Positions 15,092 through 15,518 of a stretch of 64,000 nucleotides of DNA are shown one piece after another (within the stretch, counting starts at the first letter, position 1; each line of letters opens with the position of its first letter). Source of the stretch: a virus; UHGV virus genome UHGV-0385297; one strand, 5' to 3'. The position numbers and the translations under genes were made by a program. Under the pieces are notes generated by a model. That model made no database searches and was not told the DNA's origin. It saw nothing but the letters and a program-made list of their open reading frames with translations.

Positions 15092-15326
15092 ATAAAATAA
15101 AAGACCCTACGAGCTGTGACACCCGCAGAGCCTGGTTAATATTGTAATAAAATTTCAATGTGCTATAATAGTAGTGCAAGAGCTTGCGATTTACTGTAAC
15201 CCGTCAACCATCCTATTCACGTACCATTTGGTACAGAAAGGCGAAGGTGATTTTTATACTTCGTATAATTTACACAAAGCAGCTTACTCTACCAAATTTC
15301 GTGTCCACACCATGAAAGGAGGTTTT

Positions 15327-15407
15327 ATGAGTGAAGCTGTATTAGTTTCTCTGATTAACGGAGCGACAGCAATTATTGTTGCAGTCATTGCTCTGTTTAA
15401 AAAATAG
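15327..15407 (+). CDS. 26-aa hydrophobic peptide MSEAVLVSLINGATAIIVAVIALFKK (Fst/Ldr-like type I toxin candidate)
   Basis: Perfect RBS AAAGGAGG 7 nt before the ATG. Promoter TTGTAA-17-TGCTATAAT at about 15135-15165. Antisense to the tail operon. Confidence 0.45.
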   Translation: MSEAVLVSLINGATAIIVAVIALFKK

Positions 15408-15518
15408 GGAACAAATTAATAATGAATAGGAGTTGAGCTAGATGACGATCTAGTTCGTAGAAGAGAAGTCCGTATCAAACCAGGTGCGGCTTTTCTGTTT
15501 TTATAGCACATTGTAAAT

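Follow-up and report, generated by a model that had tools for sequence, protein, structure and literature searches.

The closest described counterparts of the locus reported here are type I toxin-antitoxin systems of prophages. The toxins of bsrG/SR4 and yonT/SR6 in SPβ, and of txpA/RatA in the skin element, are short hydrophobic peptides whose C-terminus is positively charged; the structured toxin mRNA sequesters its Shine-Dalgarno (SD) sequence, and a convergent antisense RNA begins past the toxin gene's 3' end, with RNase III expected to cleave the duplex (PMC6562991, PMC3531473). We analysed a cassette of ~435 bp with the same predicted design in UHGV virus genome UHGV-0385297, a phage of the same broad type as the SPβ and skin prophages; the stretch of 64,000 nucleotides that was examined is called the window throughout. 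The cassette, which is set backwards among tail genes, holds an open reading frame (ORF) of 26 codons inside a mirror-symmetric frame of two facing promoters and two terminators. Our favoured reading, to which we give a probability of roughly 0.5, is that of a moron resembling type I toxin-antitoxin modules, with a toxin of 26 amino acids (aa) that is novel in sequence.

Several differences set the cassette apart from the SPβ and skin systems. It has no sequence or Rfam similarity to them; its two promoters are near-identical mirror copies; and it is sited inside a late tail operon. The peptide, at 26 aa, also falls below the 28-60 aa of the B. subtilis toxins (PMC6563280). A second group of counterparts comprises the modules CD0977.1-RCd11 and CD0956.2-RCd10 of the C. 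difficile prophages phiCD630-1/-2, for which a role in prophage maintenance has been demonstrated. They resemble the cassette in being unannotated small prophage ORFs with an AGGAGG ribosome-binding site (RBS) and facing sigma-A-type antisense promoters that generate long complementarity (PMC7699646, PMC6563280). Their toxins differ from the present peptide in length (34-53 aa) and in a longer charged tail, and exhaustive searches gave no homology between them.

The first-pass annotation had called the locus Fst/Ldr-like. As a loose architectural analogy this holds, since the par/Fst system (RNA I/RNA II) likewise has convergent RNAs meeting at their terminators, intramolecular SD sequestration and a small transmembrane toxin (PMC8309996). 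It does not hold as a family assignment: the Fst/Ldr toxins are defined by APxxxG / PxxxGC (PMC8309996), whereas the peptide here lacks proline altogether and offers only N11-G12. Direct-repeat interaction elements of the par kind were not seen in the cassette either, and judged by its sequence the peptide is not an Fst/Ldr member. More remote are hok and AapA1, whose mRNAs adopt a closed 5'-3' fold and are poorly translated. The cassette resembles hok/Sok and AapA1/IsoA1 in the predicted long-range 5'-3' helix that would lock the full-length mRNA; these systems differ in coming from Proteobacteria and Epsilonproteobacteria and in having antitoxins that pair at the 5' region. Activation by 3' processing has been demonstrated for the hok/AapA1 type, whereas for the present cassette it is merely conceivable. 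The locus is of an ordinary kind and a clean, testable example of it; in its proposed working it is akin to the systems of SPβ and of C. difficile prophages, and it belongs to no defined toxin family.

The peptide ORF, its promoters and the predicted mRNA fold

The ORF occupies 15327..15407 on the plus strand (ATG at 15327, TAG stop at 15405-15407) and encodes MSEAVLVSLINGATAIIVAVIALFKK, a peptide with one predicted transmembrane helix, a Kyte-Doolittle peak of 2.53 over 19 residues and a KK C-terminus. These properties agree with the generic description of type I toxins as peptides of fewer than 60 aa with a hydrophobic transmembrane helix and a positive C-terminus (PMC7699646, PMC8309996). 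The SD sequence AAAGGAGG lies at 15315..15322, 4 nt upstream of the ATG, and a second in-frame ATG at 15312 has no SD of its own. Hydrophobic peptide, SD and an orientation opposite to all neighbouring tail genes had been claimed by the first-pass annotation, and all three are borne out, the last by the gene coordinates. The length of the ORF is by itself not significant at 34% GC; it is the combined features and the conservation that carry weight. Among these features, the AGGAGG motif marks genes well in this phage: of its 21 occurrences on the two strands of the window, 16 precede sizeable ORFs, and on the plus strand from 1 to 53,900 its single occurrence is the SD of the 26-aa ORF. We consider it likely that the ORF is translated.

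Transcription of the ORF would start from the promoter P(+) (15142..15169, +), which consists of TTGTAA (15142-15147), a 16-nt spacer and TG-c-TATAAT (15164-15169), with a perfect -10 box and an extended-10 TG. It matches the consensus at 10 of 12 positions and is the top-scoring promoter of the region. The two boxes are those proposed earlier, with a spacer one nucleotide shorter than the 17 nt then given. The predicted start is at ~15174-15176, and downstream of the ORF an intrinsic terminator, T(+) (15470..15499, +), is formed by a stem-loop followed by a T-run (dG about -15 to -17), so that the plus mRNA is predicted to be ~325 nt long (about 15174-15498).

Just outside T(+), what appears to be a minus-strand promoter, P(-) (15527..15500), is aimed back at the ORF. 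It comprises GTGAAA (15527..15522), 16 nt and TG-c-TATAAA (15505..15500), its -35 box overlaps the final codons of the neighbouring YomO-family gene, and the predicted start is at ~15493. A convergent antisense RNA, which the first-pass annotation had proposed, therefore has a candidate promoter visible in the sequence. The matching terminator, T(-) (15133..15094), lies beyond P(+), with the RBS of gene 14501..15067 shortly downstream of it; it has a 13-bp hairpin (15133..15102), a U-tract to ~15094 and a dG of -18.8 kcal/mol. In a terminator scan no other hairpin with a U-run was found on this strand of the cassette, and because its stem contains five G-U pairs it would work on the minus strand only. 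It is kept in all alleles, the substitutions being G-U to A-U or in the loop. The predicted antisense RNA and candidate antitoxin would thus run from P(-) to T(-) (15095..15493, -; ~400 nt) and be complementary to the entire plus transcript; no shorter antisense RNA ending at its own terminator within the cassette was found in the window allele. The range first assigned to the element, 15135-15440, was too short, in that it omits a 3' hairpin at 15438-15453, T(+), P(-) and T(-).

Each promoter lies just beyond the terminator of the other strand, which makes the unit mirror-symmetric. By BLAST self-comparison the two promoters are the arms of an imperfect 26-nt inverted repeat (15143-15168 / 15501-15526; 23 of 26 positions match). 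Their core AATGTGCTATAA occurs in exact copies only at these two sites within the 64 kb, and it is present in every allele. In metagenome and genome collections, further matches to the promoter 20-mer were found in unrelated contexts (L023, L024, L026 and L033); in L033 the match is the promoter of a gene resembling that for DNA polymerase III alpha.

Characterised type I toxin mRNAs are closed and translation-restrained (PMC8309996, PMC6562991), and the plus transcript is predicted to be so as well. This statement is based on a consensus fold computed from five alleles and on partition functions for three of them, which agree on the main features. The structured 5' leader (15174..15326, +) measures ~153 nt, close to the roughly 160 nt of the first-pass annotation. 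It starts with a 5'-terminal hairpin (15176-15187) and contains two more, at 15221-15234 (GTACCATTTGGTAC) and 15241-15264; the former had been described as a perfect 14-nt palindrome and is in fact a 5-bp stem with a 4-nt loop. Two leader segments would engage in long-range pairing. First, TCCTATTCA (15211-15219) is the 5' arm of a closing helix of 9 bp, whose 3' arm TGAATAGGA lies in the 3' untranslated region (3'UTR) at 15423..15431, with pair probabilities of 0.75-1.0 in three alleles. Second, the anti-SD/anti-start segment GCAGCTTACTCTACC (15279-15293) is predicted to form a long imperfect helix with the SD flanks and codons 1-5, by which the SD and start region of the window allele are partly paired. 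In the related contig L006 a G to C change turns the SD into AAACGAGG, which leaves it almost fully paired in the predicted fold. By prediction alone, the transcript thus shows both SD/start occlusion and long-range closure, the translation-restraining structure of type I mRNAs.

The fold of the plus transcript has an energy of -102 kcal/mol versus -72 ± 5 for shuffled sequences (z = -6.1; 0 of 100 shuffles as good), and that of the minus strand a z of -2.4; removing the 3' hairpin and the terminator changes these values to -4.3 and -2.6, respectively. Type I systems pair a stable toxin mRNA with an unstable antitoxin RNA; the 5'-terminal hairpin and the very stable fold of the plus RNA, next to the weaker fold of the minus RNA, would agree with this indirectly. 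Compensatory double changes occur in three pairs, one each in the 3' hairpin (CTAGAT-GACG-ATCTAG, 15438..15453, +), the terminator and a pairing between an ORF codon and the 3'UTR. In L006 the 3' hairpin has a compensatory A-U to G-C as well as a U-A to U-G change, and in L006 and L030 T(+) shows compensatory A-U to G-C and U-G to C-G changes.

Conservation, alleles without the peptide and competing readings

The cassette is identical in 13 contigs. Since the entire 13.5-17.5 kb region is near-identical in them by sliding comparison, this identity is uninformative, and the idea of an ultraconserved cassette was rejected. The informative alleles are those of L006/7/8, L030, L032 and L010/L031, and the divergences given below are between the window and L006. 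Conservation is distributed unevenly along the cassette. P(+) and the 9-nt 3' arm of the closing helix are unchanged (0%), the leader differs at 7% and the ORF at 11% of positions, P(-) at 14%, and T(+) at 15%, with compensatory changes; the 15-nt spacer after the stop codon and the second 3'UTR spacer have diverged by 60% and 69%. P(-) of L006 retains the extended-10 and five of six -10 bases (TATAAA in the window, TATAAG in L006). Measured against the neighbouring YomO-family gene, which has diverged by 9-12%, the leader and the ORF are under a constraint at least that of a protein-coding gene.

The substitutions within the ORF are of the coding type. All nine differences between the window and L006 are transitions, six being synonymous and the other three conservative (V7I, A13T and T14I); when nine transitions were placed at random, six or more were synonymous in 3.3% of trials (P = 0.033). 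The other alleles add just V20F, F24L and A13T, and the ORF is intact in all five. By contrast with this, an overlapping ORF of 34 aa on the minus strand is unconserved, with several replacements and a premature stop in L006, as read by eye in the allele sequences. Because the diversity is small, both the coding test and the covariation in three pairs are modest.

The conservation in related phages on which the first-pass annotation depended is therefore found among the five alleles of the closest clade, and not beyond them. Five contigs (L020, L021, L034, L035 and L036) encode a YomO-family protein 91-92% identical to that of the window and lack the leader and the ORF. Their short allele keeps T(-), P(+) with the -10 box TATAAG, T(+) and P(-), the AATGTGCTATAA motif included, and carries ~75 nt of unrelated sequence in place of the leader, the ORF and the 3' hairpin; a 19-codon ORF in this interior is frameshifted in L034 and hence unconserved. 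All examined relatives at ~50% identity also lack leader and ORF, and have short gaps or same-strand small genes instead; the gap of one of them, L009, contains nothing but a same-strand terminator. The presence of leader and ORF in some close relatives and their absence from others indicate that the peptide cassette is accessory and behaves as a moron, and like other phage morons it has its own promoter and terminator. Exchange of the toxin gene inside a conserved type I locus of the bsrG type has been described in Bacillus (PMC6562991).

The site coincides with a mosaic junction at ~15062-15100, where homology to several close relatives ends exactly at the start of gene 14501..15067, to resume at ~13490; the gene of these relatives at the junction is a different one, of 149, 170 or 206 aa as opposed to 188 aa in the window. 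From this break in homology we reason that the conserved terminator and the cassette mark a recombination boundary.

Searches placed the peptide in no known family. Against Pfam at E<=10 its single match was an irrelevant WIV domain (E 0.14), with no Fst_toxin or Ldr_toxin; NCBIfam gave no match, and PHROGs and PADLOC no meaningful one. The comparison with type I toxin profiles that the first-pass annotation had suggested gave no match. Rfam yielded no relevant match for the cassette at the gathering threshold, and cmscan of 15050-15560 at E<=10 returned three chance eukaryotic miRNA/snoRNA matches only, with no toxin-mRNA or antitoxin family. A word-indexed search of 5.8 billion proteins with the doubled peptide as query, and phmmer run exhaustively over 1.84 billion representatives, found the same phage clade only, in which different pipelines had annotated the copies as proteins of 31, 74 or 77 aa. 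Degenerate back-translated patterns and conserved 20-27-mers retrieved the same four contigs only from IMG/VR. No match was obtained by tblastn against GenBank phages and PLSDB plasmids, where the low-complexity filter may have masked the query, and no paralogous copies of the cassette were found in the window. Annotation seldom includes ORFs of such a length, and the lack of entries in protein databases therefore says little.

A type I toxin or membrane-effector moron had been the general idea of the first-pass annotation; the anatomy fits it, and it is the best supported of the readings, in part rather than in full. In its favour are the complete, mirror-symmetric set of signals, the selective divergence along the cassette, the coding-type ORF changes, the lone plus-strand AGGAGG, the strongly structured plus RNA, the toxin-like make-up of the peptide, the setting in a temperate-looking SPβ-like phage with other accessory genes in its tail region, and the accessory nature of the cassette. 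Several observations weigh against the toxin-antitoxin form of it. First, five contigs hold both promoters and both terminators without a toxin ORF, which suggests that the frame may have a peptide-independent function. Second, no known toxin, antitoxin or toxin-mRNA family was matched in any of the five databases (Pfam, NCBIfam, PHROG, PADLOC and Rfam). Third, the spacing of 4 nt between SD and ATG is short. Fourth, the diversity is low, with five alleles and one moderately diverged lineage. Fifth, P(-) scores slightly below P(+) by consensus; the antitoxin usually outnumbers its target in the systems that have been characterised. Sixth, the predicted antisense overlap covers the whole mRNA (~320 bp), as opposed to 100-140 bp at the 3' end in Bacillus (PMC6562991).

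The alternative that survives best, which we nevertheless consider unlikely, is a benign small membrane protein moron. The peptide would then be a lysogen modulator, acting for example in superinfection exclusion, or by adjusting a membrane protein or the time of lysis, and P(-) would not be an antitoxin promoter. Promoter, SD, ORF, terminator and coding-type conservation serve this explanation and the toxin reading equally; the failure to match a toxin family in Pfam or NCBIfam speaks for it, as does the presence in the accessory slots of this tail region of other small ORFs with an N-terminal transmembrane helix and of defence genes. What tells against it is the heavy translational restraint, with a closed fold, an occluded SD and start and a z of -6.1, since this is expected for a harmful product. 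Furthermore, a benign moron leaves unexplained a mirror promoter whose sole RNA ends at T(-) before any gene.

Next in rank, and likewise doubtful, is a convergent pair of non-coding RNAs that would act as an antisense regulator, as an insulator against late-operon read-through in lysogens, or in trans, the ORF being incidental or secondary as in a dual-function RNA. Its principal argument is the short allele, in which all four signals surround an unrelated 75-nt interior with no conserved ORF. The strong structure of the plus RNA and the better conservation of the leader than of the ORF (7% as against 11%) point the same way. A non-coding pair does not, however, account for the fact that the sole plus-strand AGGAGG of 53.9 kb lies 4 nt before an ATG, or for ORF substitutions that are skewed towards synonymous ones and whose replacements are all hydrophobic-for-hydrophobic. 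The overlapping minus-strand ORF, moreover, is not conserved, and no Rfam family was matched.

Two further explanations are very improbable. A MITE-like mobile or selfish insertion, with 26-nt terminal inverted repeats that resemble promoters by accident, would suit an element of ~385 bp between repeats matching at 23 of 26 positions, the presence/absence-like polymorphism in related phages and the mosaic-junction site; it was rejected, as each genome has a single copy and its locus never varies, no target-site duplication was seen by eye, 20-mer matches elsewhere stand in unrelated contexts, and the short allele keeps both repeat arms, so that the polymorphism lies within the arms and is not a whole-unit insertion. 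A functionless chance ORF in an ordinary intergenic spacer, conceivable in that 26-codon ORFs are not rare in AT-rich DNA and hydrophobic ones are common in T-rich frames, is disfavoured by the selective conservation, the high promoter and terminator scores, the unique SD and the compensatory RNA changes.

The phage and the surroundings of the cassette

The cassette is hosted in a gap of 427-451 bp between tail genes, the size depending on the start codon chosen for the left-hand gene. Both bordering genes are on the minus strand: 14501..15067 on the left, whose likely start carries the RBS GGGAGGAAG as read from the sequence, and the YomO-family gene (PF27287) 15519..16112 on the right. Next downstream on the minus strand is the tape measure gene 10095..14486, which encodes 1463 aa and matches PHROG tape-measure families. 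The cassette is oriented opposite to all three. A gene of the YomW family (PF27256) and an adjacent RusA-like gene lie nearby.

An 876-aa protein encoded at 46510-49140 on the minus strand matches PF05183 (eukaryotic-type RdRP / two-barrel polymerase; E 1.3e-13), a family that covers the two-barrel polymerase fold, that of YonO of SPβ. On the strength of this match it is a YonO-like single-chain RNA polymerase and marks the phage as SPβ-like, although no GenBank phage shows similarity at the BLAST level. The window also codes for a tyrosine recombinase, a repressor-like protein with a helix-turn-helix and BRO-N (BRO antirepressor-like) proteins. Judged by its gene content, then, this uncultured phage is SPβ-like and temperate-looking. 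Its flanking genes have no DNA or protein match in 50,697 GenBank phage records; the related contigs, of 67-280 kb, originate from several metagenome studies and one metagenome-assembled genome. By analogy with SPβ, the tail operon is probably read by the phage polymerase, and the cassette would use host sigma-A-type signals.

Five phage tRNA genes (Ser-TGA, Tyr, Phe, Met and Lys) lie between 32705 and 44447 on the minus strand. As none of the five is a suppressor and the window is full of long standard-code ORFs, read-through of TAG by stop-codon recoding was rejected. The tyrosine recombinase gene (33283..34257) adjoins tRNA-Ser, and a PhoH/PIN protein is encoded at 41568..42806.

Other parts of the tail region also carry accessory genes. 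Between the tape measure gene and a giant ORF to its left lies an accessory or defence island (6428-8442, -) with genes for an NsnA/GmrSD-like nuclease (7453..8442; PADLOC NsnA, 1.9e-34) and a DUF3990/PARP-like protein (6428..7084; PDC-M13B, 1.2e-15); two relatives, L016 and L017, have a GmrSD_N gene directly upstream of the YomO homologue. The giant ORF, a stop-free frame of at least 1853 codons (3-5561, -), leaves the window at its left end; downstream of the tape measure gene it thus encodes another giant protein, probably a tail or fibre component. On the plus strand, the ORF 8815-8973 follows the SD GGGAGGTGA and encodes 52 aa that begin with a transmembrane helix. A similar ORF of 49 aa in L006 (2995-3144, -) has the same 13-nt SD context and is antisense in the tail operon, at a site corresponding to the ORF-free gap 16721-17186 of the window; the two may represent a further moron for a small membrane protein, one that changes its slot. 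This gap and the stretch 17493-18467 are long parts of the tail operon where neither strand has a convincing ORF, and both are highly variable among relatives, L010 having an IS605-family TnpB gene (396 aa) inserted in the equivalent region. Away from the tail operon, 58731-58800 (+) matches RF02682 (HDV-like ribozyme, Faecalibacterium prausnitzii) with 44.1 bits, barely at the gathering threshold of 44, in a plus-strand gene block that is possibly early.

Proposed working and significance

In the type I reading that we favour, host RNA polymerase would transcribe the cassette as an autonomous unit set backwards in the late tail operon, with the plus mRNA made from P(+). This mRNA would be closed by the 9-bp helix between leader and 3'UTR and by the leader segment that covers the SD flanks and the first codons, so that translation of the peptide is intrinsically restrained. 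The peptide would form a single transmembrane helix with its KK tail toward the cytoplasm. P(-), starting just past the mRNA terminator, would supply an RNA complementary to the whole mRNA and ending at T(-), and the sense-antisense duplex would block translation, lead to decay by RNase III, or both. During lytic growth the late-operon transcript, which also runs antisense across the cassette, would act likewise. Activity of the two promoters, production and toxicity of the peptide and its neutralisation by the antisense RNA are inferred, in contrast to the sequence elements with their conservation, the fold and substitution statistics, the polymorphism between alleles and the absence of homologues, which are observed.

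Type I toxin-antitoxin systems stabilise SPβ and C. difficile prophages (PMC6562991, PMC7699646). The likeliest payoff of the present cassette would be similar, with expression in lysogens serving prophage retention or another lysogen-stage membrane effect. A further idea, which is speculative and which we hold to be quite improbable, is that the frame is an insulated host-polymerase unit in an operon of a YonO-like polymerase, in which the late transcript is the master antitoxin, and that it acts as an exchangeable socket for either a toxin cassette or a short RNA in phages that otherwise hardly differ. Were such a phage-polymerase-gated type I system real, release of the toxin would be coupled to the loss or failure of phage late transcription, unlike plasmid-style addiction.

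Prophage type I modules, those of SPβ included, are well established, and the cassette opens no new category. If the favoured reading is confirmed, the type I repertoire would gain a toxin family that is novel in sequence and, at 26 aa, very short. The large SPβ-like phages from which it comes form an uncultured lineage that is represented in many metagenome assemblies. A short toxic peptide may also be of use as a counter-selection tool, for which there is a precedent in C. difficile (PMC7699646). Confirmation would further mean that type I modules can sit head-on in a late structural operon that is read, by analogy with SPβ, by a two-barrel phage RNA polymerase. The natural toxin-plus and toxin-less alleles in one frame provide a compact test case of how addiction modules coexist with late transcription.

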